In this document: positions 1,131-31,600 of the stretch, in pieces
How positions within the stretch are numbered: the first letter of the stretch is position 1
Layout: each line of letters begins with the position of its first letter
Virus record (IMG/VR): IMGVR_UViG_3300045988_088117
Location: 1-43,392 of that record
Strand: one strand, 5' to 3'
From: a virus
Length of the DNA: 43,392 nucleotides
Program-made: the position numbers and the translations under genes
The notes under the pieces: generated by a model
The model's input: the letters and a program-made list of their open reading frames with translations, nothing else
The model's database searches: none
What the model was told of the DNA's origin: nothing

Positions 1131-2537
1131 TCAGTCAAGCGGATTCCATGCCGGTTTCTGTTTGGCCGGAACAATGAGCTTTGGCGCAAGCGGACGGCTC
1201 ATCAGGAAATACCGCGTTTCGTCGTAGATATGGTCTTCGCCCGCCGTGTCGATATCCTCAACCTTATGGTCGTCGTAACACAGCGTCGGAATCGTGCGAA
1301 TGAAATCTTTGCAAGTGTTGAATACATACATCATCGGCCTGCCGTCTTCGCCAAAACGAAACCGTTCATGCAGCTGCATCTTGCCCGCCATGCGCGTGTT
1401 GTCGCCCTTGCGGAAGATCACGCCGGAAAACGTCCGCCGCATCAGTTCCTCCACGCTCTGTCCCCGGCTCTCATCCCAGATCGCCGGATCCGCAATGCCC
1501 GTGATGTGAATGCCTTCTCTGAACTCCGGTTCAAGCCACTCTGCCATACGGTTTGCAATCTCTGTCGGGGAAATCATCAGGCCGACGTTTGCCTCGCCCG
1601 GCTTGCATCCGTACAGCTCCTTGTAGCGATACACCCGCCCATCCGGGTCAACCGCCCATGCGCCCAGCGAAAACGGCCTTGAAAAGCCGTGGTCAAAGCT
1701 GACGTACCGCGTCCAGTTAAGCGGAATGTCAAACGGCTCGATGACGTGCGTATGCACACCGTCCATGTAGTGCGCCGGGTCGTTGGTGAACTCCGGGAAC
1801 GCCTGTCCCTCGAAAGCTTCCCACTTGCCATAAAGGAGCGCATCGCGCAGTTTGGCGGGCTTGTTTTGCAGCTCAACGATATACATCTCATCGATATGCG
1901 GGTTGTCATACACAGTCGCCGGAATATATTCGCAAATCGATTTCTTGGTTTTCATCTTGCCGTCTTTGCCCATGATTTCCGTGTCTTTGACAACTGTGTG
2001 CTGTCCAACGTCCGTTGAGTCAACAAACCGCGCTTTTACCCAGCCGTGTCCCGGCCCGCCGGGGTTGCTGGCGCACCGCACGCAGGGCTTCACCTTTAAA
2101 TTTACGGGCGCGCGCACGCGCGTCTTGATGTAGTTGTACATGCCTTCGGAAAAATGCGTCAGCTCGTCGAAGTACAACCACTGAATCTGTGAGCCTTGAT
2201 ACTTGAGCGTGTCGCCCTCGTCGCTCAGATGGCAAAACCGCGCCACGCTTCCGTTGACAAACTGAATCTCATGATTGCCTGCGTAGTACTTGCCCAGCTC
2301 TTCCGGCACAATCGACCGCATGGTTTTGATGAGCGTCTGCTCCAATTCCGGGAAAGTGCGTCTGAACAGATATGCGCTCGTACCCGGATATTTCAGGCAG
2401 CGAATGAACGCGTCCCAGCAGATGGCGTAGCTCTTGCCGCCGCCCGCCGCGCCTCCATACAGAACCTCGTTGCTTCTGCTCGCGTGAAACGCTTTCTGTT
2501 TGGGCGTGGGCCGATAGTCAAACACAATCTGGCTCAT
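1131..2537 (-). CDS. terL: Terminase large subunit
   Basis: 468 aa. Walker A GGAAGGGKS and Walker B-like LYFDELTHF are present. A C-terminal nuclease-like region contains GEDHIYDETRY. The start overlaps the terS stop. Confidence 0.9.
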   Translation of the reverse strand: MSQIVFDYRPTPKQKAFHASRSNEVLYGGAAGGGKSYAICWDAFIRCLKYPGTSAYLFRRTFPELEQTLIKTMRSIVPEELGKYYAGNHEIQFVNGSVARFCHLSDEGDTLKYQGSQIQWLYFDELTHFSEGMYNYIKTRVRAPVNLKVKPCVRCASNPGGPGHGWVKARFVDSTDVGQHTVVKDTEIMGKDGKMKTKKSICEYIPATVYDNPHIDEMYIVELQNKPAKLRDALLYGKWEAFEGQAFPEFTNDPAHYMDGVHTHVIEPFDIPLNWTRYVSFDHGFSRPFSLGAWAVDPDGRVYRYKELYGCKPGEANVGLMISPTEIANRMAEWLEPEFREGIHITGIADPAIWDESRGQSVEELMRRTFSGVIFRKGDNTRMAGKMQLHERFRFGEDGRPMMYVFNTCKDFIRTIPTLCYDDHKVEDIDTAGEDHIYDETRYFLMSRPLAPKLIVPAKQKPAWNPLD

Positions 2538-2971
2538 TCATCCTTGTCCTCTGGCATGTTCACTTCAAACCCGCCGCCCGCAAACGAAATGCTGATATCC
2601 TGCTTGTCCTCCTTCGGCGCTTTGATTCCCGCCCGGTCAAGCACATCCCGGCTCGCGTTCTGCCACAGGTACTGATACGCAGGTTCGTATTCCGTGTTGA
2701 GAATGTCTTCGTTGCGATCCAGTGCCTTTTCCGCCTGTTCAAGGATTCTTAGTTGAGCCGTGGCAAGCCGCGCCTCCCGCAGCTCCTTCATCCTGTCTGC
2801 AAACTCTGCCCTGTGCAGCGCGTTGTAAATCGCTGTTCGGCTGACGCCGTACGCTTCCGCAAGCTCCGTGACCGATTCGCCTTCATCCACATAGCGTCGC
2901 ACGACCTCGATGCACTGCTCGTCTGTGATCTTCTGACAATTCGGCGGCGTTCTCGCCTTTTTCTTAGCCAT
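2534..2971 (-). CDS. terS: Terminase small subunit (HTH-containing)
   Basis: 145 aa with an N-terminal HTH (SVTELAEAYGVSRTAIYNAL). It lies immediately upstream of terL and overlaps it. RBS is AAAGGAGG. Confidence 0.6.
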   Translation of the reverse strand: MAKKKARTPPNCQKITDEQCIEVVRRYVDEGESVTELAEAYGVSRTAIYNALHRAEFADRMKELREARLATAQLRILEQAEKALDRNEDILNTEYEPAYQYLWQNASRDVLDRAGIKAPKEDKQDISISFAGGGFEVNMPEDKDE

Positions 2972-3010
2972 TCCAAAGCCTCCTTTTTTCTACCGTTCCC
3001 TTGGATATAA

Positions 3011-3046
3011 AAAAATTCTGAAACATTGCTCTGTCTCAGAATTTTT
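3011..3046. terminator. A/T-flanked hairpin upstream of terS (bidirectional terminator-like)
   Basis: aaaaattctga...tcagaattttt forms an imperfect stem of about 11 bp, flanked by A and T runs, about 40 nt upstream of the terS start. Confidence 0.4.
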
Positions 3047-3278
3047 TTCAGATGTTTTTGATTCGTTTCTGATTCTGCTTTCTGGTTTGCCCCGGTGGGG
3101 ACACGCCCGCAGGGCGGGGAGGCATATGAAATCGCGTAAAGCCCCGCGCGCAGGTGGTCAATTCGGGGTAGGGGGTGGCCTTTTCCGAAATCTGGTTTCA
3201 AAATCCGATCCCCTCACGTGCGCACGCAAACGCAGAGAGGAAAACACCCCTCGCCGCCCCATTGTGGGCTACAATCCC

Positions 3279-3553
3279 GCAATCTCTCGGCCTGCAATCT
3301 CAACAATATATAGGTTTCGCGGCTCTATTGCGCTCTCCGCGTCATAATCTGCGGCATAATCTCCCGCAATGCGTCCCGCGTCTCAGTGCTCAGCCTCATT
3401 ATATGCGCGTCCCGCGTCAGCATGCGCGCCCCGCGTCGCCGTAGGTGCGCAGCGTGTGCGCCCCCCAGCCCCCGCGCAGATCGCCGAGCGGTGAAGCCTC
3501 CGCGCGTCGCGTCGTCCTCCTGCCTGCTGGTCTCCGCCTGAGCGCGTCGCGTG
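3279..3553. repeat. Cluster of short direct repeats in an ORF-free GC-rich region (candidate pac/cos or ori)
   Basis: GCAATCTC occurs at 3279 and 3294. CATAATCT occurs at 3343 and 3355. GCGTCCCGCGTC occurs exactly at 3371 and 3407, with variants at 3426, 3501 and 3542. Confidence 0.5.
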
Positions 3554-3835
3554 TCGCCGTCTTGCCCAAAAATCGTCGGAATAATAGGAAGCGACCGCAC
3601 AGCGTCCCGCCGTACAGCCGCCCAGGGGTCAAACGTCCGTATAATCGCCCGTCGGACGCGGGCGACGAAGTCCGCGACCTCGTCCCCGTCGTCGAGGACG
3701 ATTATACAATATCATATTGTCAAGCATGCCACAAGGTGTCACACCCTGACAGACCCTGACAGACTTGCGCAAGGGGAGCAGATCGAAGCGAACAAAAAGC
3801 CCCAGCGAGCGTCTGCCCGTCGGGGTTGTCTCATC

Positions 3836-4063
3836 TTATGGGGTTGCGTCTCCGGCAGTTGTGGCCGCTGGAGGCGTGAAACCGTCGCGCTGCATGCGGT
3901 CAAAGCAAGCTTGTATGACGTACGCTTGCACGGATTGCCCAGCAGCAGCGGCAGCCGTGCGAATCGCGCCGCCCTTGTCCTTGGGTGGGCGAATCATGAT
4001 GTTATCCTGCCCTTGCTGGTACTTGCGAACAGCTCTTTTTTGAGCGTCTGTGGCTCTGCCCAT
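3836..4063 (-). CDS. Small ribbon-helix-helix (Arc/CopG-like) regulator
   Basis: Translates as MGRATDAQKRAVRKYQQGQDNIMIRPPKDKGGAIRTAAAAAGQSVQAYVIQACFDRM. This shows the RHH pattern of a basic N-terminus, a beta-strand and two helices. RBS is GGAGGTG. It is divergent from the plus-strand operon. Confidence 0.55.
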   Translation of the reverse strand: MGRATDAQKRAVRKYQQGQDNIMIRPPKDKGGAIRTAAAAAGQSVQAYVIQACFDRMQRDGFTPPAATTAGDATP

Positions 4064-4083
4064 GTCATCACCTCCACGCGGAC

Positions 4084-4112
4084 ATAATACCACAACGGCA
4101 AATCTATGTCAA
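4084..4112 (-). promoter_or_regulatory. Sigma70-type promoter of the RHH gene
   Basis: On the minus strand: TTGACA (4112..4107), 17 nt spacer, TATTAT (4089..4084). Confidence 0.6.
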
Positions 4113-4202
4113 CTCATGCAATATGCACAAAAAGCAGCAGTATATGTTAACTCATATTTGTTTAATATTCCGGTATTGCCTTTTTATGTGAGTTAACATA
4201 TA
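4105..4202. promoter_or_regulatory. Three operator-like sites TATGT(T/C)AACTCA
   Basis: Copies are at 4105-4118 (direct), 4141-4157 (direct) and 4186-4202 (inverted, 16/17 identical to the second). The outer sites overlap the -35 of the leftward promoter and the -10 of the rightward promoter. Confidence 0.6.
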
Positions 4203-4204
4203 CT
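4176..4204 (+). promoter_or_regulatory. Sigma70-type promoter of the plus-strand accessory operon
   Basis: TTGCCT (4176-4181), 17 nt spacer, TATACT (4199-4204). Confidence 0.6.
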
Positions 4205-4282
4205 ATGACCATCACGAGGGGCAAGCGCCCTGGACACCACACAACAGACCGCCGCCGACAGGCGGCAGAAAGGAACGATATT

Positions 4283-4495
4283 ATGACTACTACTACCACC
4301 ACCCGCAAGCCCGCCAACCTCAACCGCATCATCAAGAGCGTAGAGAGCCGCGGCGAATACATGACCCGCCGCTACTACTACACCAACCGCGACATGTGCG
4401 ACCGCCGGGAGATTGTCCGCATCGAGCGCGACGCCCTCGGCACCACCCGCACGCTTGACCGTGACAGCTGGCAGATCGTCGCCGTCATCCGGTAA
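4283..4495 (+). CDS. Hypothetical small protein (70 aa)
   Basis: ATG at 4283 follows a GAAAGGA RBS. The listed start at 4205 lies upstream of the predicted transcription start site. No recognisable domain. Confidence 0.55.
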   Translation: MTTTTTTRKPANLNRIIKSVESRGEYMTRRYYYTNRDMCDRREIVRIERDALGTTRTLDRDSWQIVAVIR

Positions 4496-4605
4496 CGAGC
4501 CGAAACGCCCTTCCGGGCGTCCGCATGGGATTGCCTCCATGCGCTGATGATGGCAGGCTAAGACAACCGCGACAGCCTCCCAACCGAGGGGAAAGGAAAA
4601 TAACT

Positions 4606-5004
4606 ATGAAGACTTATGATAGCATCCGCGAAGAAATAAAAACCCGCAAAGGCCGTAGCGCGTGGGATCGCGGCGTGACGAAGTACGCGCTTGAGCTGGT
4701 GGATCAGCTGGAGACTTACGCCTCTTATGAGGGGCGCGATCCGCAGACGATGGGCGAATGCCGGGCGTGGATGCTCAACGGCGCGAAAGACTGGGCGGCG
4801 TACAGCTGGGGCGGCTCATCCTTGATCTATAACAAGGACATCGCCGCGCGTCTCTGCTCCCCGTCCGAGCTTGCGAAGACCCGCAACGGCGAACGCAGAC
4901 CAAACAGCCGCGAAGAGTGGCTTAACGTACAAGCCCGTGCGCTCTATCAGGCTTGCGACCGCGTGACCCGTATATATGCGCAGGCGCAGACCGCAGAGGC
5001 GTGA
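4606..5004 (+). CDS. Hypothetical protein (132 aa), accessory island
   Basis: ATG at 4606 follows GGGGAAAGGAAA. Composition is protein-like (MKTYDSIREEIKTRKGRSAWDRGV...). Function unknown. Confidence 0.7.
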   Translation: MKTYDSIREEIKTRKGRSAWDRGVTKYALELVDQLETYASYEGRDPQTMGECRAWMLNGAKDWAAYSWGGSSLIYNKDIAARLCSPSELAKTRNGERRPNSREEWLNVQARALYQACDRVTRIYAQAQTAEA

Positions 5005-5088
5005 ACCGCGCCCGAGGTTTTCAGAGCGCCCGACCTGCGGACGCTCTACAAAGCCCCGGAAAGAGGCTAAAATAAGGAGGATAAAACC

Positions 5089-5313
5089 ATGAAAGATTAT
5101 TACAAAATCCCCGTGCACGTCAAAGGCTGCCGCACCGAGTACGGAAGCGGAAAGCATCGTTTAATCATTGACGCTTGCCAGCTCTCGCCCGATCTCTACG
5201 AGGTCATCGCCATGAGGCCAACCGGGGCAGAAATCGAGCTGAACCGTTTCGCGACCGAAGCCGAAGCGCGCGCCGATTATGCGCGCATGGTTGAGCAATA
5301 CAGATCTTGGTGA
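5089..5313 (+). CDS. Hypothetical small protein (74 aa)
   Basis: Strong RBS TAAGGAGGA lies 7 nt upstream of the ATG. Confidence 0.7.
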   Translation: MKDYYKIPVHVKGCRTEYGSGKHRLIIDACQLSPDLYEVIAMRPTGAEIELNRFATEAEARADYARMVEQYRSW

Positions 5314-5386
5314 GGTTTTCCACCCTGCCCGGCTCAGGCTGGACAGGGAAGAAAGCCCCGGCAACGGGTAAGCAAGGAGGCAAAAA

Positions 5387-5485
5387 ATGTTTTGGTTTCT
5401 CTTTTCCGTGATCGCCGCCTGTGATTATATGCGCGATGTTCGCGGCTCGGTGGAAACGCTTTTGCTCTACGCCAATCAACATTGA
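5387..5485 (+). CDS. Possible 32-aa hydrophobic peptide (MFWFLFSVIAACDYMRDVRGSVETLLLYANQH)
   Basis: AAGGAGG RBS lies 6 nt upstream of the ATG. The ORF is below the ORF-track size cutoff, and its N-terminus is hydrophobic. Confidence 0.35.
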   Translation: MFWFLFSVIAACDYMRDVRGSVETLLLYANQH

Positions 5486-5487
5486 TG

Positions 5488-5516
5488 TTGTTATCCCGTT
5501 GGGATGATGATATAAT
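5488..5516 (+). promoter_or_regulatory. Extended -10 sigma70 promoter
   Basis: TTGTTA (5488-5493), 17 nt spacer, TGaTATAAT (-10 at 5511-5516), upstream of the gene at 5557. Confidence 0.6.
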
Positions 5517-5556
5517 ACTTGTATAGCCCCCCAGCAGGGGCGGAAAGGACAAAACC

Positions 5557-5838
5557 ATGAAGAAGCTTAGAATGAAAGATGTCATCACCCGCGAAGGGTA
5601 TGAGTGCCTGACCGCCGAGGAGCGCCATGCGCAGCTCAAGGTTGAGCAAGCCAAGGAGATCAGCGGCCTGCGTCGCTACCCCAGCACTTGCAGCGCCGTG
5701 CTCGACCGCATCCCTGCCGAGTGGTGGAGCAAGTACAGCGCCGAGCACATCGGCGAGGTGATGCAGCTGCTCAAGGCCGCCTATGATGACGGGCGGCAGT
5801 ACCCGGATCGCGACGAGTGGCAGCGGCGCGAGGATTAA
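5557..5838 (+). CDS. Hypothetical small protein (93 aa)
   Basis: RBS is GGAAAGGA. Composition is protein-like. Confidence 0.7.
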   Translation: MKKLRMKDVITREGYECLTAEERHAQLKVEQAKEISGLRRYPSTCSAVLDRIPAEWWSKYSAEHIGEVMQLLKAAYDDGRQYPDRDEWQRRED

Positions 5839-5943
5839 AAAAATAAAAGCAGGAGATTTCTCTCCTGCTTCCCCTTTGTTTAGTAGCTTTGCTATTAAAC
5901 AGGCTAATATTTCAACCCCACACGGAAGCGTTGCTTCCGAGAC
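5838..5943 (-). ncRNA. Unit A: predicted ~105-nt RNA starting with a CRISPR-repeat-like element, then a second hairpin and a terminator
   Basis: Minus-strand repeat at 5943..5909 is GTCTCGGAAGCAACGCTTCCGTGTGGGGTTGAAAT. A second hairpin lies at 5878-5900. The terminator stem GCAGGAGA/TCTCCTGC (5849-5868) is followed by a T-run on the minus strand. Confidence 0.55.
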
Positions 5944-5949
5944 GACTGT

Positions 5950-5979
5950 ATTATACAGTAATCAATGCGGATTTGTCAA
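5950..5979 (-). promoter_or_regulatory. Consensus promoter of unit A
   Basis: On the minus strand: TTGACA (5979..5974), 18 nt spacer, TATAAT (5955..5950). The repeat starts 6 nt after the -10. Confidence 0.7.
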
Positions 5980-5992
5980 GGAGAAAAAAACC

Positions 5993-6361
5993 ATGAAGTA
6001 CTACATAGAGATCACCGTGCGCCGTGAAGACCCCCTGACGCACTACACAAGCGAGGATTTTATCGACCTCAGTTGCCCATGGGTGGATATCGACCCCGCG
6101 CTCATGTCTGACGATTGGGCGAAAGCCCGCCTCATCAGCGAGTATTGGTCAGACTTTGACCCTGCAACACCCGCCCCGCGTATGTGGTGGGAAACCGACA
6201 GCGGGCGCAGCGAGAACAACGATTATTATACATTGGTCGTATATACGGCTACTGATGACGGCGAGCCGGATTTTGACAACATGGTTGCAGGCGCGTCTAT
6301 GGATGCTTGGGGCATCTGGGAAGAAAAAAAGAAAGCGCCAACAAATAAAATCTCCGAATAA
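5993..6361 (+). CDS. Hypothetical acidic protein (122 aa)
   Basis: ATG at 5993 follows AAGGAGAAA. The gene is flanked by ncRNA units A and B. Confidence 0.7.
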   Translation: MKYYIEITVRREDPLTHYTSEDFIDLSCPWVDIDPALMSDDWAKARLISEYWSDFDPATPAPRMWWETDSGRSENNDYYTLVVYTATDDGEPDFDNMVAGASMDAWGIWEEKKKAPTNKISE

Positions 6362-6463
6362 AAAAAGAGCGGGAGAAAAATTCTCTCGCTCTTTTTTGCT
6401 CACTAGCAAAGCTATCGAACAATACAATATTTCAATCCCACACGGAAGCATTGCTTCCGAGAC
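6360..6463 (-). ncRNA. Unit B: predicted ~104-nt RNA starting with a CRISPR-repeat-like element
   Basis: Minus-strand repeat at 6463..6429 is GTCTCGGAAGCAATGCTTCCGTGTGGGATTGAAAT. The terminator hairpin at 6366-6392 has A/T runs on both sides. Confidence 0.55.
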
Positions 6464-6469
6464 AGTTTG

Positions 6470-6498
6470 ATTATACACCATCTGTATACGGCTGTCAA
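6470..6498 (-). promoter_or_regulatory. Consensus promoter of unit B
   Basis: On the minus strand: TTGACA (6498..6493), 17 nt spacer, TATAAT (6475..6470). The repeat starts 6 nt after the -10. Confidence 0.75.
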
Positions 6499-6499
6499 C

Positions 6500-6604
6500 A
6501 AAAAAACGAGAGGAAAATTTTCCCCTCGTTTTTTGTCTTCCGACGGATGTCGGTTGAACAATTTAATGTTTCAATCCCTCATGGAGGTTAGTTTCCTCCA
6601 AGAC
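6500..6604 (-). ncRNA. Unit C: predicted ~105-nt RNA with a divergent CRISPR-repeat-like element
   Basis: Minus-strand repeat at 6604..6568 is GTCTTGGAGGAAACTAACCTCCATGAGGGATTGAAAC. A second hairpin CCGAC/GTCGG lies at 6540-6553. The terminator hairpin at 6506-6529 is followed by a T-run. Confidence 0.55.
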
Positions 6605-6610
6605 ATCTTC

Positions 6611-6639
6611 ATTATACGCTGCATTTTCTCGGATGTCAA
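6611..6639 (-). promoter_or_regulatory. Consensus promoter of unit C
   Basis: On the minus strand: TTGACA (6639..6634), 17 nt spacer, TATAAT (6616..6611). The repeat starts 6 nt after the -10. Confidence 0.75.
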
Positions 6640-6650
6640 CCCTTTATTCG

Positions 6651-6677
6651 CCAAAAAGCCCGGCTTTTAGCCGGGTT
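6651..6677 (-). terminator. Intrinsic terminator after the late-regulator gene
   Basis: Stem AGCCCGGC/GCCGGGTT has the stop codon in its loop and is followed by TTTTT on the minus strand. Confidence 0.55.
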
Positions 6678-7107
6678 TCTTTTGGCTGTTCGCCGCTCGG
6701 ATGATCTCCGATTTGTATCTCCGCGCGGTTCTTTCGGTCACGTTCGCTTCCCTCCACGCTGCTTTCAGCGGCATATCGTCGATATAATACAACTTGAGAA
6801 ACGCCCGCATGCCCTTGATATAGTCCCCCTGTTGAGGCTGGTACATGATGATCCTGTCCAGCGCCCGCAGCGCTTTCTGCTGAGCGCGCAGAAAAGCCGC
6901 ATGCTTTTCATGCAGCTTTTCTTCCGCGTTTTGCTCTTTGATGATCTCGCTGTCCAGCCCCCGCGCCGCGCCGTGCTGTCTGGGCATCCCGTCCATGTCG
7001 GCGCGTCTGGCGTTGCGATTGTCGTATCGCTCGCGCTCTGTCCGATACTCATAAGCCGCAAACCAGCAGTCAATCAACGCTTTCGCGTCCTTTTTGTCGG
7101 CTCGCAT
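6667..7107 (-). CDS. Putative late-gene transcriptional activator (ArpU/RinA-like, C-terminal HTH)
   Basis: ATG at 7107 follows an AGGAGG RBS (146 aa). The C-terminus LKLYYIDDMPLKAAWREANVTERTARRYKSEIIRAA resembles sigma region-4 or ArpU-type regulators. It is the last gene before the packaging module. Family assignment is from memory. Confidence 0.5.
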   Translation of the reverse strand: MRADKKDAKALIDCWFAAYEYRTERERYDNRNARRADMDGMPRQHGAARGLDSEIIKEQNAEEKLHEKHAAFLRAQQKALRALDRIIMYQPQQGDYIKGMRAFLKLYYIDDMPLKAAWREANVTERTARRYKSEIIRAANSQKKPG

Positions 7108-7658
7108 TGCGCCGCCTCCTTTGCGTTTCGCCTCTTGTCCAGCCATGTGACGCCGACCGCCATAGCCTGCCACATGTCCCCGGCAAAGCCGTAAAATACG
7201 TCCGGTTCTTTTTTTGTTCCCTTCCCCGTGGCCGTGTCGTAGCGGGCAAACCGCTGGATCAGCGATGCGCGAATCTGTCCGTCTGCGTGGGCAGGCGTGC
7301 CCGGCGGCAGAGGCGGAAGCCCGTTTTTCTTCGTCGGGATGAGCGCCGACCGCTCGTCCCGGCGGAATATCCAGTCCACCCCAAGCCCCCGCAGCGCCGC
7401 TTGTCGCCCAAATTGTCCCATCCACTTGATCGTCTGAATGGTGCTCGCTCCCATCACCGCGCCCGCCGCGCTCCTGTCCCCGCTGGTGTATCTCGGCTCC
7501 ATGTCCTCGATCACAACTACATCCACCCCCGGCGCGTCGGCAATGATGGCAATCATGGTTTCGTTGTCCACCTTGTCCGCGCTCAAAATCCGGTAGTTTT
7601 CGTCCAGCATCACATACGCGCTTTGCGTCGTGCCCGGATCAATGGCAAGTAGTTTCAC
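7074..7658 (-). CDS. RuvC-like Holliday junction resolvase
   Basis: GTG at 7658 follows an AAGGAGGAAAAA RBS. The N-terminus KLLAIDPGTTQSAYV and VVVIEDME resemble the RuvC-fold acidic motifs. Confidence 0.6.
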   Translation of the reverse strand: MKLLAIDPGTTQSAYVMLDENYRILSADKVDNETMIAIIADAPGVDVVVIEDMEPRYTSGDRSAAGAVMGASTIQTIKWMGQFGRQAALRGLGVDWIFRRDERSALIPTKKNGLPPLPPGTPAHADGQIRASLIQRFARYDTATGKGTKKEPDVFYGFAGDMWQAMAVGVTWLDKRRNAKEAAQCEPTKRTRKR

Positions 7659-7846
7659 TTTTTCCTCCTTTTCTGCTGGTTTAGCCACCACTGCTGGCGG
7701 CTTTTGTTTGTCATCCGCTCGAAGAAAAAATCCTGCCGATTCTGCCGCACTCTTTCGTGTTGTTCCGCATACGCCTTGTATCTCTCGCATCCCGCGTGGC
7801 AGCCGACCTCGCGGCTCACGCAGTCGCGGCATGGCGCGTCATTCAT
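7655..7846 (-). CDS. Small Cys-rich protein (63 aa)
   Basis: Begins MNDAPCRDCVSREVGCHAGCERYK. The start overlaps the upstream stop in an ATGAATGA-type junction. Confidence 0.55.
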   Translation of the reverse strand: MNDAPCRDCVSREVGCHAGCERYKAYAEQHERVRQNRQDFFFERMTNKSRQQWWLNQQKRRKK

Positions 7847-10138: not shown

Positions 10139-10441
10139 TCATTTCAATTCCTCCAAACTAATCTGCCCATCAATGGGCGTATTGTCGGCCTCTTTCCGCT
10201 TCCGTTCCGGGACGACTTCTCGCACAAGGGGCTTGCGGCTTATTGCCCGATTGAATGCCCCACAAGCCATCCATCGGCCCGCCCAGTCCGTCGCTTCACT
10301 ATGGGTAAGCCCGTACACTTTGCATTTGCAAAGCCTTTTATCGTGATACTTGCCCTTTATAAAGTTGCTACACTCCCGGCACGTATGCCCATCCAAAACG
10401 CCAAAAAAACGGTGCATCAGATCAAGTTTACGTAAAGCCAT
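10139..10441 (-). CDS. Cys-rich hypothetical protein (100 aa)
   Basis: ATG at 10441 overlaps the upstream TAA (TAATG junction). Contains CRECSNF and CKCK. Confidence 0.5.
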   Translation of the reverse strand: MALRKLDLMHRFFGVLDGHTCRECSNFIKGKYHDKRLCKCKVYGLTHSEATDWAGRWMACGAFNRAISRKPLVREVVPERKRKEADNTPIDGQISLEELK

Positions 10442-11451: not shown

Positions 11452-11864
11452 GCTCGTCTCTTCCTTTCCTCGCTTGCTCTTCTCATTCTTTCGATCATCT
11501 GCGCAACGTTTTCTTTCTCCTGCGCGCTGGCGGGCTGTCTCACCGCCTCTTTCCTGTGCGTCTTGAGCCGCGCTTTCTCTTCTTCGCGCCGCCGTTTGGC
11601 TTCCAGCGCCTTTTCCTCCCTCGCCGCCGCTCTGCGTTCCATCTCTGCGCGGCGCACTTTGCGCGCCTCTTCTATCGGCTTCTGCGCCACGCGGAAACAG
11701 GTATAGCTGCAATACCAGTTAAACGCCGTCCCCGTGTGCGGTTTGTCGATCTTGTAAGCGTATTTCCGGCTGGCGATGCAAAAGGTCTTTCCGCAGGTCT
11801 TGCATACCTTCGGCGGAATCGTTGTAAAAGTCTCCGTCCCGATCATGTTTCTTCCTGTCAGCAT
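11448..11864 (-). CDS. Zinc-ribbon plus basic coiled-coil protein (138 aa)
   Basis: Contains CKTCGK and CSYTC. The C-terminus is Arg/Glu-rich. RBS is AGGAGG. Confidence 0.6.
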   Translation of the reverse strand: MLTGRNMIGTETFTTIPPKVCKTCGKTFCIASRKYAYKIDKPHTGTAFNWYCSYTCFRVAQKPIEEARKVRRAEMERRAAAREEKALEAKRRREEEKARLKTHRKEAVRQPASAQEKENVAQMIERMRRASEERKRRA

Positions 11865-12667
11865 GGCGTTATAGCCTCCTGCACAGGCGGAATTTTCCTT
11901 TCCGGTCTTTCCGGTGCATATTTATTCAAAAAATAGAGCTGCCCCTTTGGCGTGATGACGGTCGTCGTGCTGAGGAACGTTTTTTCGGCGCTTCCAATCG
12001 TCCGCTCGATCACCCGCATCAATCCCATGTCAACGCTCTTCTGCGTCGGCGCGTTCTGGTCTTTGGCGTTGGCCTTAATCACCCAGCCGTCGCGCCGCAG
12101 AATCTCATACAATCTCCGTTCTCCGACATCGTATCCCCGCTGATTCATCAGTCGAGCCAGCTGACGCACGAGAATGTCCCCTTCCGCTTTCTGCACCGTC
12201 TCCGCAAACAGCACCTTCGGCGCGTCTGCCTTGATCTTTTCGTTCGCCGCTTCAAGCTGCTTGTTCCGCTCGGCAATCTTCCGCTGCGCAACCATCAGCG
12301 CGTTTGCCAGCAGCTGGTCGTCGTCCATCGTTTCCTGTCCGGCGATATACCCGCCCGTCTTGCGAATGGCCGGGATGACTTCATGGGTAATCCAGCGCTT
12401 GAAGGCTTTGGCTTCGGGCTTGCGGCTGCTGAGAACCAAACTGTAAAGCCCCGGCTCGTTGATGATGGTCATTTTTTGTTCGCCGCCAAGGGTGCGGATT
12501 AAAACCGCATCCTTTTCGTCATCATCAAGCCGCGTCGTTGCCGTCCTGCTGTCGCCAATTCCCAGCGCCCTACACACATCCGCCGCAACAAACCACGGCT
12601 CGCCCTCCAGCGTCACGGCGCGCACCGCGCCGAACTCGTCCTTGCGAAAAATCGTTACGTTGTCCAT
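11858..12667 (-). CDS. Antirepressor (BRO-N plus KilA-C/ANT-type C-terminus)
   Basis: Begins MDNVTIFRKDEFGAVRAVTLEGEPWFVAADVCRALG. Later contains KAFKRWITHEVIPAIRKTGGY, typical of Bro-N. Confidence 0.8.
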   Translation of the reverse strand: MDNVTIFRKDEFGAVRAVTLEGEPWFVAADVCRALGIGDSRTATTRLDDDEKDAVLIRTLGGEQKMTIINEPGLYSLVLSSRKPEAKAFKRWITHEVIPAIRKTGGYIAGQETMDDDQLLANALMVAQRKIAERNKQLEAANEKIKADAPKVLFAETVQKAEGDILVRQLARLMNQRGYDVGERRLYEILRRDGWVIKANAKDQNAPTQKSVDMGLMRVIERTIGSAEKTFLSTTTVITPKGQLYFLNKYAPERPERKIPPVQEAITPC

Positions 12668-12674
12668 TATCCTT

Positions 12675-13352
12675 TCACTCCTCATCAAAATTGACCACAT
12701 TGCTCTTAAAATACTTGTGCCGCTCTTCTTTGCTCATCCCGCGCAGTTTCGCGGCGTATTCGTCCATTTCGTCCAACCCGGCTTCCAGATTCAGCGCGGT
12801 TTGTCCGGCGGCGATCATCTGCCTGTCGCGCTCAATCCGCGCCCGAACGTCGCCCGGCATGCGCCGAATGGTTCTGTGCTGTTCCGCCCGCGCGGCGTAA
12901 CTCCGCTGAAAGTTGCTTGCAAGCACGCTTTCGCTCACGCCGTCGTCGCTGATTGCCCAATCGTGAAGCTGGCTCGGCGAGCCGACAACCTCCCGCACCA
13001 CTTCCGGCAGCTCGGCAAACCGCTCTGCGCTGTGATACGCGCTGTCCTTCATGGCTTTTTTGACCAGCCCCCATGCACTTTGCGGTGTCAGCTCAAACCC
13101 GTTCACGGCCTGATTGATCGTGTCCAGCTTTTCCCGGATCTGCCCAATGCTTGGCGGGAATCCTTTGGTGTCGTTGGCGATAAAAGCCTTCACCGCGTCG
13201 TTGACAAGGCTTGCGTCGTCGTCGGCGAAGAAGCCCAGCCACGCGTTGGTTGTCGCCTTGACGTCGTTTGCGCTCATTTTGGCGTAAAACTGTGGGTAGA
13301 TCGCGCTGATGATCGCCAAAACGTCGCTCATCTCCCGAAAGGTCATTCGCAT
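12675..13352 (-). CDS. Putative replicative helicase loader (G39P-like)
   Basis: Lies after the DnaD-like gene. The N-terminal pattern AIISAIYPQFY...TNAWLGFF resembles the G39P loader family (from memory). The start could be 13346 instead. Confidence 0.4.
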   Translation of the reverse strand: MRMTFREMSDVLAIISAIYPQFYAKMSANDVKATTNAWLGFFADDDASLVNDAVKAFIANDTKGFPPSIGQIREKLDTINQAVNGFELTPQSAWGLVKKAMKDSAYHSAERFAELPEVVREVVGSPSQLHDWAISDDGVSESVLASNFQRSYAARAEQHRTIRRMPGDVRARIERDRQMIAAGQTALNLEAGLDEMDEYAAKLRGMSKEERHKYFKSNVVNFDEE

Positions 13353-17966: not shown

Positions 17967-19046
17967 ATGCCGAAAATCGAGAAAACAAAAACCGGATACC
18001 GCGCCCGCGTCTCTACGGGTGAGCGCCTGCCCTCCGGCGGATACCGCTATATTTCGCTCTCTGCCGCGACGAAAGCCGAGGTAAGGCGAATGGTTGCTTC
18101 CTTTGATGAAAACCGCGAGAACGCCCTTTCCGCGAATCTGGCAGGGCGTGTGACGCTCTCTCAGGCGATGGATAAATACCTCGATACCTGCCGCGCCGCT
18201 GGTCGCTCTCCGACAACCATCCGTGGCTATGTCACCATGAGGCGCAACGGCTTTGAAGCCCTCGAAACAAAACCAATCGCCAAAATCTCCCGCGCCGATA
18301 TCCAGTCTATGGTCAACGACTGGACGCGCTCCGGCGCAACGCCGAAAACCGTCCGCAATAAGCTCAGCTTTCTCTCCTCTGCCATAAAGCACGCCGGAAT
18401 CGAGCCGCCGATGCAGGGCCTAATCCTGCCTGAACCTGACCGCAAAGAGATGACTATCCCGCAGGATGAGGACGTGCAGCGTGCGCTGTTTTATCTCCGC
18501 GCCCATAATACCAACCTCTACGTCGCCGTCGTCCTTGCCGCAACGCTGGGTCTGCGACGCGGTGAAATCGCCGCCCTGACGATGGATGACTTCGACTTCG
18601 ACGCGGGCACGGTCACCATTAGCAAGTCCCTCGCCATGGATGAGCGCGGCGACTACATCACCAAAGCCCCGAAATCCCGAAGCGGTAACCGCGTCCTGCG
18701 TGGCCTGGATGCGCTCGTCGTCTCCGCTGTCCGCAACTTTGGGCATCAGCCGCCGCAGACCATCACCAGCATGACGCCTGCTGCAATCTCCTGCGCTTAT
18801 GCCGATGTATGCGCCAAGCTCAATCTCCCTGGTCGCTTTCACGATTTACGCCACTACGCCGCGTCCGTTATGGCTGCCCTCAACGTCCCGCCCAAGTACG
18901 CTCAGGAGCGCATGGGGCACGCAACCCTCGATATGCTCAACCGCGTTTACCAGCACACGATGGACAAAAAGCGCGATGCCGTAGCCGACGCGATTGCGTC
19001 TCACAATATCGCGCTGCTTGGTGGTGAAGTATGCCAGTACAAATAA
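17967..19046 (+). CDS. int: Tyrosine integrase
   Basis: 359 aa. Contains LGLRRGEI (Arg), HDLRHYAAS (HxxR) and LNRVYQH (Tyr), with an N-terminal SAM-like domain. Confidence 0.9.
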   Translation: MPKIEKTKTGYRARVSTGERLPSGGYRYISLSAATKAEVRRMVASFDENRENALSANLAGRVTLSQAMDKYLDTCRAAGRSPTTIRGYVTMRRNGFEALETKPIAKISRADIQSMVNDWTRSGATPKTVRNKLSFLSSAIKHAGIEPPMQGLILPEPDRKEMTIPQDEDVQRALFYLRAHNTNLYVAVVLAATLGLRRGEIAALTMDDFDFDAGTVTISKSLAMDERGDYITKAPKSRSGNRVLRGLDALVVSAVRNFGHQPPQTITSMTPAAISCAYADVCAKLNLPGRFHDLRHYAASVMAALNVPPKYAQERMGHATLDMLNRVYQHTMDKKRDAVADAIASHNIALLGGEVCQYK

Positions 19047-28613: not shown

Positions 28614-31600
28614 TTACTTTTGCTTTTTGATGGTCGTGCCGCCGTTAAGTGTCTTGAGCATGCCCGTCAACAGGCTTTCACCAGTGACCCATTTTTCCTG
28701 ATATTTTGCAAACTCCTGATTGACCTCCAAAGCCAATTCGCACATTTTGGCTCGGATGCGGCTGCTTTTTTCGTATTTTTCCTCGTCCGTCAAATCCGTG
28801 CGTGCGTTGATGGCTTTGATCGTCTCATACCCTTCGCTGATGGTCTTTTTGGCTTCGTAGATCGTTCCGCCGCTGTGCGTCATATCGTAGGCGACGTCAT
28901 ACGCCTTTTGTGCCTGTCTCGGTGTCAGGTCTCCGCGCAGCATGTTCAGTTCGCGTCCGTTGTCTCCTGCCTTGACCACTGTTGTCAGGAATGTATTGGC
29001 GTTGTAGACCTCGCTGACAACATCATTGCTCTTGAGCGGGTCACTCGTCAGCATCTTTTGGGCGTATGCCGTAAATGCCGTCACAGGGCTGTCGCCGCCC
29101 AGTGTCGGAATGGCAACCTGTCCCGCGAATCCTGTGTATTGCTGTGCCATATATTGCAGCATCATCGGGCTGATCTCCGCGCCAGACAACGAATGAATAA
29201 AGCGAGACAATCTGATGAACGCGTCCGGCGTGTCCTCCGTATACTGCGTTGTCGCGTCCCAGCTCTCCATGTAGCTGGGCACGATGCGGCTGCCGTACCA
29301 GTTTTTGTTGGTCTGCGTCGCAATTATCGGGTCAAAAATCGTGCTTCCGACAGGATTAAGGCTATCTACCATCGTCGCAAACGTCGTCGCCATGTCGATG
29401 GTGAATTCGTCCCCCTTGCCGGATTCCAGCGCGTTGAACACCATCGCGTGCGTAAAGTAGTCAAGGGGATTCTGGTCAATGGGGATACGGATGAGCGGCG
29501 CGTCTCCGAATACGTCCGGCGCAAAATTGGGAATGAAGAAATGCCCATTTTTCAGGTCGTCGCTCAAAAACGCAAATTGTTCTTTGTCCTCGTCGTCAAG
29601 GAATTTGGCTCTCAGTCCGGCGCATACCGCCGTAAACAGTCCTGTGTTGACAACAGAGCGCATGACGCGACTGACCACTTGCCCGCGCTCCTGCGCTGTA
29701 AACTGCCGTCCGGTGCGGTATACGCCTTGCAAACTCGCATTCATAAACGGAACGACGTTGCGGATGCCGCGTCCGATGCTGCTTGCGCCCTTTCTGCCAA
29801 AATCGACCGTGCTTTCTTGGGAGGCGCGGTAGGCTTCCGCTCGTCCCTCAGCCGTCGTCAGATCGTGCTTACCATAGAGATATTCGGCTACGCGGGTCGT
29901 TTTCTCGATAAACTCGTTCGGCTTTTGCAGGGTTGCGTATTCCCAGAGTTTTTTTCCTGCCCATTTCGCTGTACCCGCAAGCGTACTCGTATCATAGTTT
30001 TTGAAGTATTCCATGTTCAGCGGCGTCCATTTGCCGTCACTTGTGTGGAATAGCCTTTCCGTTGTATACAACGTGTGCCGCAGGTCTTTAATGCCCTTTT
30101 GGGTTGTATCAATGCGCCCGTCGTTTCCGCCCAGCGCGTCATAGCCCTTTACCGCCTCATCTCCGCTTGCGATTCTGTATGCGGTCATCAGCCATTTCGC
30201 CGCGCCGTCCAGATAACTCTTTGCCCATGTGCCGTAGTTGACACCGTTCTGGAAGTCTCTCGCGAAGTTGCGCAAACCAAACACCGAGTTCGCGCCCGTC
30301 GTCAGGAACGTCATGGCGCGTGTGCCGCGTCCGATAAAGTCCGTAACCTGCTTTCCTCCGTCCGGCGTGTTCGCCATCATCCTGAAAAACGGCTCGTTGA
30401 GGATTTCGATTTTGCTCGTGCTTCCGTCGTCATTCCATACCGTGATGACGTTCTGCCCGTCCGCGCTGCTCTCATCGGCATTGGCACGAATCAAATCACC
30501 GAATTCCCCGTTCAGCGGGTCAAATTGCACCGTCTTATCCGGCTTTGCATCGGTTTCGATTTTGTGCGCGATTTCACCGAGTCCCTCGTGGGTGTCCAAC
30601 AGCATTTCAAGCTTTTGCGCCGCCTGATTAGTCATGTCCTGCCGCACAATCCGCCCGACCATCTCAAGCATGCTGTCCATCGGGTTCAGGATCAGCTCGG
30701 TGCTTCCCTTCGCCTGACGAACGGAGAACCCGGCTTTTTTTGCCTGCTCAAGCGAAAAATCGCCGTCCTTGATGCGATATGTAGGCGCATAATAAGGGTA
30801 GATGCTTTGAAAATATTTCCATCCCGCTTCATCCAGTCTGCCGCTTGATACAAGATACTCGTGCGTAAAGGCGTTCCACGTTTTGAGCAGACTATCAACC
30901 GTCTTTGCGTATTCCGGATGCGTTTTATCCTTTTCCGCGATAAACGCACGCCGTTCCGCGTTTGACGCAAACCCGTCGTCAAATACAGGCTTGTTTTGCT
31001 TGTCCCTGTCGATACTGTCCTTGACAAGCCAATACAGCTCAAAATCCTTGTAATCCTTGCCTTTCAGCCCGCCGTCCTTGATTGCGTCCGCAAAGCTGCC
31101 GCCGATAATCGTGCTGCCGTCTCTTGCTACAAGCCCGTCGCCGATGATATACAGCGCACGCTCGTCCGCTTTGTTCCGCAGCAGCACCGCGTCTCGCAGG
31201 TTCTCGGAAAACGCCACGGTGCTTTCACCAGTCTCCGCCCTGATTTTCGCATTGATCAGTTCCGCCGGGGCGGACGAATCGACAAACTCATAGGTGAGCC
31301 GCATCATCTTTTCCTTGAGCGTTTCCTTTTCCTTCGCGTTTGTGCGGTCTACGACCATGCTTTGCAGCCGATCCTGTGTGCTCTGATTCAGCCATTTGCG
31401 GATGTCGTTTTTGTAAAGGTCGAACGCCTTGTCATATCCGCTCTGCCGCATCTGGTAATCAAACGTGTCGGTAAACGCATCACCCGCGAATCGTCTGCCC
31501 TGCTCGTCGCTCAGCACACGCCGCCAGACGTATTCCGCCATCGCCTCTCCCGCCATCTCCGCATCCGTGTAGTTTTTCGCCCACGATGCGTTTTCGGCTT

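Follow-up and report, generated by a model that had tools for sequence, protein, structure and literature searches.

Two kinds of phage RNA that imitate the repeats of CRISPR arrays have been described. RNA anti-CRISPRs (Racrs) are solitary repeat mimics located just past promoters, which sequester Cas proteins and cluster with anti-CRISPR (acr) genes (PMC10651486); one of them, RacrIC1, adjoins acrIC5 in a bicistronic unit of a Bifidobacterium prophage (Camara-Wilpert et al., Nature 2023, PMC10651486). Cracrs are composed of a pseudo-repeat, a pseudo-spacer and a terminator and steer the captured effector to a cas or creT promoter, and their definition includes a match of at least 9 nucleotides (nt) to the host cas or creT promoter, proximal to the protospacer-adjacent motif (PAM), as well as similarity to the host CreR or CreA (bioRxiv 10.1101/2024.10.29.618823). 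It has also been reported that Cracr arrays occur for type I-C, and that co-encoded Cracrs address variants of one CRISPR type (bioRxiv 10.1101/2024.10.29.618823). In the present analysis, three RNA cassettes resembling these elements, and the small-gene island that carries them, were examined in a stretch of viral DNA of 43,392 nt (IMG/VR record IMGVR_UViG_3300045988_088117, positions 1 to 43,392; the window), whose source looks like a temperate siphovirus-type phage of the human gut.

We read the cassettes as RNA anti-CRISPRs that act by mimicry of CRISPR RNA (crRNA), with a decoy function as the primary role and reprogramming as a possible one, and put the probability of this reading at roughly 0.58. 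The island (positions 3836-6666) is best explained as two functionally separate parts, namely the minus-strand RNAs and an operon of open reading frames (ORFs) on the plus strand. A preliminary description of the same DNA had proposed that three CRISPR-repeat-like RNA cassettes are interleaved with the ORFs, and a covariance model indeed found exactly three copies in the window, at 60-63 bits (minus-strand parts are given from their 5' to their 3' end):

5837-5979, minus strand: RNA cassette 1 (60.3 bits), with promoter at 5979 to 5950, pseudo-repeat at 5943 to 5909 (GTCTCGGAAGCAACGCTTCCGTGTGGGGTTGAAAT), pseudo-spacer hairpin and terminator at 5872 to 5845
6360-6498, minus strand: RNA cassette 2 (62.8 bits), with promoter at 6498 to 6470, pseudo-repeat at 6463 to 6429 (that of cassette 1, GTCTCGGAAGCAACGCTTCCGTGTGGGGTTGAAAT, but with AAT in the loop and the end GGGATTGAAAT), pseudo-spacer hairpin and terminator
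6500-6639, minus strand: RNA cassette 3 (60.1 bits), with promoter at 6639 to 6611, pseudo-repeat at 6604 to 6568 (GTCTTGGAGGAAACTAACCTCCATGAGGGATTGAAAC), pseudo-spacer hairpin and terminator at 6527 to 6510

All three are built in the same order, i.e. a TTGACA-17/18-TATAAT promoter, a pseudo-repeat of 35-37 nt, a pseudo-spacer of about 35 nt and an intrinsic terminator. The promoters agree with the consensus at 12 of 12 positions, 6-7 nt separate them from the pseudo-repeat, and each repeat-like unit is solitary, being followed by its terminator with no second repeat. This is the architecture of the published Racrs (PMC10651486), an upstream promoter and a terminator being found at the sequence level in all three cassettes, and also that of the Cracrs, with their combination of pseudo-repeat, pseudo-spacer and terminator (bioRxiv 10.1101/2024.10.29.618823). 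The pseudo-repeats have the hallmarks of type I-C repeats, including a GTC start, a central hairpin and a GGGRTTGAAAY end. The last motif occurs three times in the window against 0.13 expected, and shuffled sequences never gave the full frame of the pseudo-repeat. Each copy has its own natural variant of the handle (GGGGTTGAAAT, GGGATTGAAAT and GGGATTGAAAC), and the GC content of the cassettes is 38-40%, compared with 56% for the genome.

The family to which these cassettes belong was gathered by pattern scans of IMG/VR and of metagenomes; the related loci that were fetched, numbered with an L below, amount to about 1.65 Mb. Fifteen distinct cassettes share the architecture, in loci from IMG/VR (L004, L007, L011, L012) and from metagenomes (L144, L154, L158, L188, L193, L202, L214, L218, L227, L231, L234), and a sixteenth, more divergent cassette (L255) is devoid of the TGTT motif that the others have at the start of the pseudo-spacer. 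By means of the covariance model, no divergent cassettes were found in the cassette-less loci L137, L239, L242, L244 and L248. When compared with Rfam, the cassettes matched neither CRISPR-DR nor any other family, and a few weak matches (Bacillus small RNAs and the SR6 antitoxin) were dismissed as terminator-driven noise.

Covariation was analyzed in 12 versions from gut phages, which were hand-registered and padded with N, as MAFFT and RNAalifold had mis-aligned the hairpins. In the repeat hairpin (8 pairs), 100% of the cells are paired and 4 pairs show compensatory change; in the pseudo-spacer hairpin (11 pairs), 87% are paired and 5 pairs show such change. When the 3' partners were slid as a control, 35-49% were paired, with 0-1 compensatory pairs. 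The versions of the repeat hairpin include CGGAAGC/GCTTCCG, CGGGAGC/GCTCCCG, TGGAGG/CCTCCA and TGGAGATG/CGTCTCCA, and those of the pseudo-spacer hairpin TAGC/GCTA, CCGAC/GTCGG and GTAGC/GCTAC. Sequence conservation is seen in the handle, which is single-stranded, and in the ATTRNNYTGTT with which the pseudo-spacer begins; the variable positions of the latter include position 6, at which type I complexes have a flipped-out, unpaired base. Moreover, the pseudo-spacers of different phages are homologous to one another. An alternative helix between handle and pseudo-spacer is compatible with the sequences, but it shows one-sided changes only and was not adopted.

For comparison with genuine repeats, arrays of Clostridia were taken from a looser two-repeat pattern run on 185,579 species-representative genomes (GTDB), the listed matches of which are mostly unrelated arrays of I-B, I-D and III-like kind. 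Among the matches listed, the last 11 nt of the pseudo-repeat are identical to the repeat ends of Clostridial arrays in L079, L095 and L116. Type I-C cas genes lie beside such arrays, including those for Cas5d, Csd1 (Cas8c) and Cas7 in L079, Csd1 and Cas7 in L113, and Cas7 and Cas4 in L116. In addition, a repeat of similar style is labelled I-C in the Racr SRU table, and the window cassette sequences were not found in the portion of that table that was available (PMC10651486).

On the basis of this anatomy, we infer the following scheme. Each cassette would give an independent RNA of about 105 nt that starts almost exactly at the I-C-like pseudo-repeat and would contain, in order, the repeat hairpin, an 11-nt I-C 5' handle, the pseudo-spacer hairpin of about 35 nt and the terminator hairpin. 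The spacer length of type I-C systems is about 35 nt, and the distance from handle to terminator hairpin in the cassettes is likewise about 35 nt. The RNA may mimic a complete mature crRNA, the terminator hairpin taking the place of the next repeat's hairpin, which is the 3' handle of a real crRNA. Transcribed in excess from the consensus promoters, it would be bound, and perhaps processed, by Cas5d, Cas7 and Cas8c of the host, and these proteins would be drawn off phage-targeting crRNAs in the manner of a Racr-type decoy. Such a decoy presumes a natural host with a type I-C system or another CRISPR system with a ATTGAAAT handle, and the three handle variants would widen the coverage of I-C systems. 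As a Cracr-type refinement, ATTRNNYTGTT might guide Cascade to repress a host cas or toxin promoter. Protection of this kind would be useful to a temperate phage, because its prophage state needs shielding against the host CRISPR; the temperate-type genes of the window include a tyrosine integrase (17967-19046), an HTH_3 repressor and a Bro-N/ANT antirepressor (11858-12700). If the RNAs inhibit type I-C, the repertoire of RNA anti-CRISPRs reaches phages of uncultured human-gut Clostridia. They could also find use as compact RNA inhibitors or guide scaffolds, type I-C serving genome editing and gut phages being of therapeutic interest.

Like the published Racrs, the cassettes are solitary phage repeat mimics outside any array, lie directly past a strong promoter, have a repeat of I-C style (hairpin and handle), are located among small unknown genes of an accessory locus, and are proposed to act in the same way, by competition for Cas proteins. 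Unlike Racrs, they have an additional spacer-length hairpin segment and a 3'-handle-like terminator, which would make them mimics of the whole crRNA, and they occur as three separately promoted paralogues in the window phage; furthermore, they are convergent with the neighbouring ORFs, whereas RacrIC1 is co-transcribed with acrIC5. With Cracrs they share the layout of CracrVA1 (single pseudo-repeat, pseudo-spacer and rho-independent terminator), the presence of several variants side by side in a phage (multiplexing), and a tie to one protein gene, as in the case of I-F Cracrs and acrIF24. On the other hand, the likeness to Cracrs is one of layout, without a host-promoter match in the I-C loci examined, the cassettes are independent transcription units rather than an array, and their pseudo-spacer is mostly double-stranded. 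What distinguishes the locus is the combination of separately promoted, putative whole-crRNA mimics, a structured pseudo-spacer and three handles per phage, which appears to be a design not yet described, together with the link to a new protein family discussed below.

Some of the same observations could be accommodated if reprogramming were the main function. In that case, the 5' part of the pseudo-spacer would pair by a PAM in the promoter of I-C cas genes or of a CreT-like toxin, Cascade would silence that promoter, and the three cassettes would correspond to three host variants. We consider this unlikely, although by no means negligible. The architecture is exactly that of CracrVA1, the start of the pseudo-spacer is conserved, the absence of full-length protospacers in the searched sets fits partial, regulatory matches, and I-C Cracr arrays and variant-targeting co-encoded Cracrs are on record (bioRxiv 10.1101/2024.10.29.618823). 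However, neither a host CreR or CreA nor a target promoter was found: a match to a host cas or creT promoter was sought in the few fetched I-C loci and the other fetched DNA, and the covariance model detected no CreR-like element in the fetched type I-C loci. In addition, a covarying hairpin, for which a guide would have no need, takes up most of the pseudo-spacer, and the cassette of L255 has no TGTT.

A quite different use of the host machinery is conceivable, in which the units are single-spacer mini-CRISPRs that borrow the Cascade and Cas3 of the host against rival phages or plasmids (superinfection exclusion). Each unit does consist of a repeat and a spacer-length segment behind a consensus promoter in a temperate phage. 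Viral mini-arrays are known from archaeal viruses. When the pseudo-spacers of the three window cassettes were searched after masking of the positions presumed to be flipped, the only protospacer-like match in the 2.9 million viral contigs of IMG/VR was the cassette itself, and none was found in the fetched loci. The homologous pseudo-spacers, with a hairpin kept by compensatory change, are the opposite of acquired spacers, and no second repeat is present. Thus, despite the mini-arrays in inter-viral conflict that are cited in PMC10651486, the cassettes were rejected as members of this class (single repeat, no protospacers, structured and homologous pseudo-spacers), and a mini-CRISPR function appears very improbable.

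The plus-strand part of the island agrees with the preliminary description in that a small regulator of the ribbon-helix-helix (RHH) type is transcribed divergently from small plus-strand ORFs, of which six, of 32-132 amino acids (aa), were located:

4283-4495, plus strand: o1, a basic ORF of 70 aa
4606-5004, plus strand: o2, 132 aa, from a very large conserved family of gut phages
5089-5313, plus strand: o3, 74 aa
5387-5485, plus strand: o4, a 32-aa peptide with a hydrophobic N-terminus
5488-5516, plus strand: internal promoter TTGTTA-17-TATAAT with an upstream TG, ahead of o5
5557-5838, plus strand: o5, a helical protein of 93 aa, tail-to-tail with cassette 1
5993-6361, plus strand: o6, an acidic protein of 122 aa (isoelectric point, pI, 4.2), tail-to-tail with cassette 2

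Shine-Dalgarno sites precede all six ORFs. The absence of recognizable domains was confirmed by family scans of all ORFs (Pfam, PHROGs, NCBIfam and PADLOC; Pfam was also run on the cargo of sister islands): o1-o6 have no significant match in Pfam, NCBIfam or PADLOC, and PHROGs yielded only two marginal matches, for o2 (E=0.055) and o4 (E=0.016), both with families whose function is unknown. Among sister-island cargo, Pfam recognized J-domain and LPD25 proteins only. The suggestion that several ORFs have their own promoters was upheld for the promoter at 5488-5516 and by a general enrichment of promoter-like sites (10 compared with 2.6 +/- 1.8 in shuffles); it does not extend to o6, for which no plus-strand promoter of its own was detected. 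The island had also been described as running opposite to the flanking phage operons, which applies to the six ORFs but not to the RHH gene and the three cassettes, whose direction is that of the flanks (minus).

Among the ORFs, the strongest candidate for an anti-CRISPR (Acr) protein or for a partner of the RNAs is o5. It occurs together with a cassette in one island in nearly all cassette loci, usually tail-to-tail and in at least two unrelated phage backbones, and when sampling started from o5, a cassette was present in the island of 3 of 6 lineages. The o5 family is narrow: among 1.8 billion representatives, it forms 72 clusters when the identity level is 90%, and 38 when it is 50%. The AlphaFold2 (AF2) model is all-helical with a predicted local distance difference test (pLDDT) score of 86.8, and had no match in PDB or BFVD. 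In distant homologues (P0225, P0226, P0229, P0239, P0251), a helix-turn-helix (HTH) domain, HTH_3 or HTH_17, is fused to either end, and the o5 domain matches six stretches of a 1256-aa protein without Pfam domain. By analogy, these fusions recall bifunctional proteins combining an Acr with an anti-CRISPR-associated (Aca) regulator, and could also represent the sensor or dimerization domain of a regulator. A type I toxin-antitoxin pair of o5 and cassette was rejected, as o5 is a soluble 93-aa protein with an all-helical model and the RNA overlaps only the shared terminator hairpin.

The second candidate, o6, is from a similarly narrow family (32 clusters) and adjoins a cassette also in L004, L188 and L251. 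At 5974-5995 of the window, the ribosome-binding site of o6 lies immediately beside the cassette 1 -35 box; in L004 and L251, o6 directly follows the preceding gene. Together with the absence of a detectable o6 promoter, this gives cassette 1 the look of an insertion between o5 and o6. Both proteins might act as partners of the RNAs, either as Acr proteins or as RNA cofactors, and are therefore candidate I-C anti-CRISPR proteins or cofactors for further study.

The other ORFs show less connection with the RNAs. The least certain gene is o1, which has no family match and no homologue in the related loci. Homologues of o3 that are 89% identical occur in L011 and L234, and in L137 a 74% identical one is the N-terminus of a 187-aa protein. 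The start of o4, MFWFLF..., is kept after a stem-loop (see below) in several loci. The family of o2 comprises 3874 clusters that are still 65-70% identical to o2, and in other gut phages o2 is found in plus-strand mini-islands beside terS; its AF2 model is helical (pLDDT 78). With a family of more than 3800 clusters at such identity, o2 does not look like a typical Acr, and its size and conservation argue against that function. Members of the J-domain (DnaJ) group were also observed in this context, within the o2-family member P0116 and in sister islands (L138, 9685-10311, minus strand; L253, 2760-3266, plus strand).

Several observations weigh against the interpretation of the cassettes as crRNA-mimicking anti-CRISPRs and of o5 as their partner. 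An exact-pattern search of the 185,579 genomes yielded no CRISPR array with the full pseudo-repeat, which exceeds the canonical I-C repeats of the fetched arrays by 2-3 nt; the comparison set consists of Clostridial I-C arrays, which may not be those of the phage host. Neither the published Racrs nor the Cracrs have anything that corresponds to the pseudo-spacer hairpin, whose role is guesswork. The covariation was obtained from an alignment fitted by hand to the structure, with about five independent lineages. Homologues of o5 (63-72% identity) occur without a cassette in 3 of the 6 sampled lineages, and L138 and L231 have cassettes without o5; the link between the two may simply reflect the position of cassettes at the 3' ends of operons. 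Finally, no match was found for o2, o5, o6 or the RHH protein by phmmer against all PDB chains, which include the solved Acrs, nor any fold match for the o2 and o5 models by Foldseek against PDB. The structure prediction and Foldseek search suggested in the preliminary description have thereby been carried out for o5 and o2, with models obtained and no PDB fold recognized.

Because none of the proteins searched resembles a solved Acr, the argument for anti-defence is drawn from the RNAs and from guilt by association. The anti-defence function that had been attributed to the island as a whole is supported in part, the evidence being good for the RNAs and circumstantial for o5 and o6, while nothing was found in its favor for the other ORFs. 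This bears on the possibility that the island is a classical acr-aca locus, in which o1-o6 would include protein Acrs or other anti-defence proteins, the RHH protein would be an Aca-type autoregulator, and the RNAs would be accessory. The parts of the regulatory region are as follows:

3836-4063, minus strand: gene of the RHH-type regulator (75 aa), transcribed divergently to the operon of ORFs
4112 to 4084, minus strand: RHH promoter TTGACA-17-TATTAT with an upstream TG (11 of 12 consensus positions)
4176-4204, plus strand: operon promoter TTGCCT-17-TATACT (9 of 12 consensus positions)
4105-4204: operator region, with half-sites TATGT(C/T)AACTCAT at 4105-4117 and 4143-4155
4139-4157 and 4186-4204: arms of a 19-nt inverted repeat (95% complementary)

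The RHH protein has sub-threshold matches to RHH families of Pfam (NikA-like, ParD and MobA), and its match to phrog_13890 has E=1.7e-5. Within the intergenic region 4064-4282, TATGT(C/T)AACTCAT is present in three copies, two of which form the 19-nt inverted repeat. The -35 box of the RHH promoter sits inside the copy at 4105-4117, while the arms of the inverted repeat bracket the -35 box of the operon promoter and overlap its -10 box. All seven related loci retain the promoter core GGCAATACCGGAATAT (in the orientation of the RHH strand), with only slight changes, and across them the sequence of the repeats co-varies with the N-terminal ~20 residues of the RHH protein: the window has the same pairing of N-terminus and operator as L214, and L137, L138, L227, L234 and L253 each have a pair of their own. 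Owing to this co-variation and to the inverted repeats that overlap the promoters, the RHH protein is very probably an operator-specific repressor of both the divergent operon and its own promoter, and would thus keep the six-ORF operon under control through the inverted-repeat operators. It is also a regulator whose operator specificity can be read from sequence.

As in acr-aca loci, a small DNA-binding regulator here faces inverted repeats overlapping promoter elements, as judged in silico, and probably governs its own promoter and an adjoining operon of small unknown genes. A precedent for an RHH-type Aca exists in Aca14 (bioRxiv 10.64898/2026.07.27.740549), with which the window protein can be compared by layout. 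In contrast to the usual arrangement, in which the regulator is co-transcribed downstream of acr, the RHH gene is on the opposite strand with its own promoter and is not the last gene of the operon, and the island has no homologue of a validated Acr in the PDB chain searches (o2, o5, o6 and RHH) or fold searches (o2 and o5). The acr/aca layout proposed earlier therefore holds for the regulator and its inverted repeats, and fails in the divergent orientation, the absence of an Acr match and the atypical family of o2. An acr-aca locus is, on balance, a tentative but serious possibility. It would account for the small proteins without recognizable domains in a hypervariable island, the co-varying and promoter-overlapping operators, the published clustering of Racrs with acr genes, the linkage of o5 to cassettes and the fusion of its domain to HTH in distant homologues, the strong acidity of o6 (pI 4.2), and the occurrence in sister islands of LPD25, a domain of polyvalent anti-defence proteins. 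It is less easily reconciled with the lack of resemblance to solved Acrs in sequence or fold, with the size and conservation of the o2 family (Acrs being fast-evolving and narrow), and with a regulator that is divergent rather than downstream in the operon.

Divergent RHH repressors are also a feature of a well-known accessory locus. In the immI region of phage P22, the RHH repressors Mnt and Arc control the accessory ant operon. The window resembles immI in that the genes of an RHH repressor and of an accessory operon diverge near the late or packaging genes of a temperate phage, and in that the N-terminal part of the RHH protein sets operator specificity. It differs in that the island lacks a homologue of the antirepressor (Bro-N/ANT is encoded elsewhere in the window), as well as in the presence of CRISPR-repeat mimics and ribozymes. 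An ordinary moron or secondary-immunity island of the immI type, with the RNAs as small RNAs or bidirectional terminators and a coincidental likeness to repeats, would explain why the cassettes are always located at operon 3' ends, where they double as bidirectional terminators, and would be consistent with island proteins that are all of unknown function and with the parallel to immI of an RHH gene divergent from an accessory operon within the late region. We regard it as distinctly improbable: a conserved, single-stranded GGGRTTGAAAY beside a covarying hairpin is just the requirement of a Cas5d-type recognition site and is not expected by chance, and terminators need no consensus promoters.

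The island is accessory and freely recombining cargo. Its boundaries are the late-regulator-like gene on one side and terS/terL on the other, and the neighbours of the cassette island are terS, terL, a RuvC-like gene and the late regulator. Between L137 and the window, TerL is 100%, TerS 99% and the late regulator 98% identical, yet the island of L137 has no cassette and contains ORFs of its own, a domain like o3 and an RHH protein of 85% identity; the promoter block found at 5488-5516 of the window precedes a different ORF there. In L138, whose TerL is 99% identical to that of the window (the late regulators of L137 and L138 are 97-98% identical), two cassettes are present in the island, and its ORFs, one of them for a J-domain protein, are different. 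Since the cargo largely differs between phages with 99-100% identical TerL, the earlier proposal of accessory cargo at a module junction, here one prone to recombination, is supported by the comparison of related phages, which revealed a hypervariable island beside nearly invariant terminases.

A second, unrelated backbone (L004, L188, L202, L218 and L251) contains o5, sometimes o6 and LPD25, and a cassette. In this backbone, the island adjoins a gene for a CI-like HTH_3 protein, the cassette is divergently transcribed from that gene, and no similarity could be found between o5 and the adjacent HTH protein. LPD25 (PF18840) was detected in a 360-aa protein of o5/o6 operons in L244 (6327-7409) and L251 (5163-6245), and a 360-aa ORF in L188 (2111-3193, minus strand) is equivalent in length and position. 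LPD25 is a domain of polyvalent proteins of phages and conjugative elements. Besides, an unrelated gut phage (L248, 4850-5300) has a TTGACA-17-TATAAT promoter upstream of an o2 homologue, followed by about 300 nt of hairpin-rich non-coding DNA, which may encode a different small RNA in a similar island.

In addition to the cassettes, the plus-strand operon has structured RNA elements that go beyond the preliminary description, namely a hammerhead ribozyme and stem-loops at the stop codons of o2 and o3:

4498-4562, plus strand: hammerhead type II ribozyme (RF02276), between o1 and o2, 3 nt past the o1 stop
5013-5059, plus strand: stem-loop 1 (CGAGGUUUUC...AAAGCCCCGG), 9 nt past the o2 stop, with an identical copy in 7 loci
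5311-5361, plus strand: stem-loop 2, which overlaps the o3 stop and has another inner helix (-32.1 kcal/mol, z-score -2.5)

The predicted ribozyme scores 52 bits, above the RF02276 gathering score of 37, with the CUGAUGA, GAAA and GUC core intact; from the alignment to the family, its cut would fall after C4521. Hammerheads II recur at intercistronic positions of equivalent islands in several phage lineages:

L007: 153-225
L214: 1768-1840
L227: 2297-2370
L234: 5794-5866
L244: 6216-6290
L251: 5049-5126
L253: 2663-2736
L188: 3230-3307

Similar to other hammerheads II of phage neighbourhoods, the window copy is a full-length match with an intact core, is located between genes of an operon and is recurrent. 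The ribozyme itself is ordinary; what sets it apart is the recurrent pairing with an unclassified stem-loop at equivalent positions. The operon transcript is probably cut into pieces by the hammerhead.

The stem-loops are 47-51 nt long and have the form YGAGGUUUUC-[variable inner helices]-AAAGCCCCRG, with 12 versions in 10 loci. The inner helices vary and still pair (AGAGCG/CGCUCU, AGACUG/CAGUCU, CCCUG/CAGGG), and the elements sit about 25-30 nt upstream of the next ribosome-binding site. Further copies start at 10302, 9657 and 9260 (minus strand) in L137 and are found at 5816 and 8179 in L239, as well as in L007, L144, L214, L227, L234 and L253. No match to Rfam was obtained. As their position is of the same kind as that of the hammerheads, the stem-loops may also be processing sites or an unclassified ribozyme. 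A more elaborate proposal combines these features with the cassettes: full-length crRNA mimics, as a distinct class of RNA anti-CRISPR with a conserved self-folded pseudo-spacer and the terminator as 3' handle, would trap I-C Cas proteins in a dead-end complex, as a module with co-inherited o5 as a new helical fold, and the GAGGUUUUC...AAAGCCCC stem-loop would be a new processing element or ribozyme. In this complete form, the proposal is quite doubtful. The combination of an RHH or HTH regulator, a ribozyme-punctuated operon and a 3'-end repeat mimic may nevertheless serve as a signature for mining anti-defence loci from metagenomes.

With regard to the phage as a whole, the nearest matches by tblastn of TerL are 41-45% identical and come from "Bacteriophage sp." records from human faeces; no cultured relative was found by blastn or by TerL tblastn. 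Genes for recombination are located elsewhere in the window, including those for a Sak annealing protein and a G39P-like loader. The genes and regions flanking the island, and the structural region, are as follows:

1131-2537, minus strand: terL
2534-2971, minus strand: terS
3000-3835: non-coding GC-rich stretch of about 830 nt, between the RHH gene and terS
6667-7107, minus strand: late-regulator-like gene, with a weak phrog_36 match
7074-7832, minus strand: ORF of 252 aa, RuvC-like by eye
28614-37373, minus strand: a single ORF of 2919 aa in the structural region

The stretch at 3000-3835 has no convincing gene, is conserved in L137 and contains the palindromic sequence TTGACAATATGATATTGTATAA near 3700-3722; it could contain a late promoter or a packaging site.

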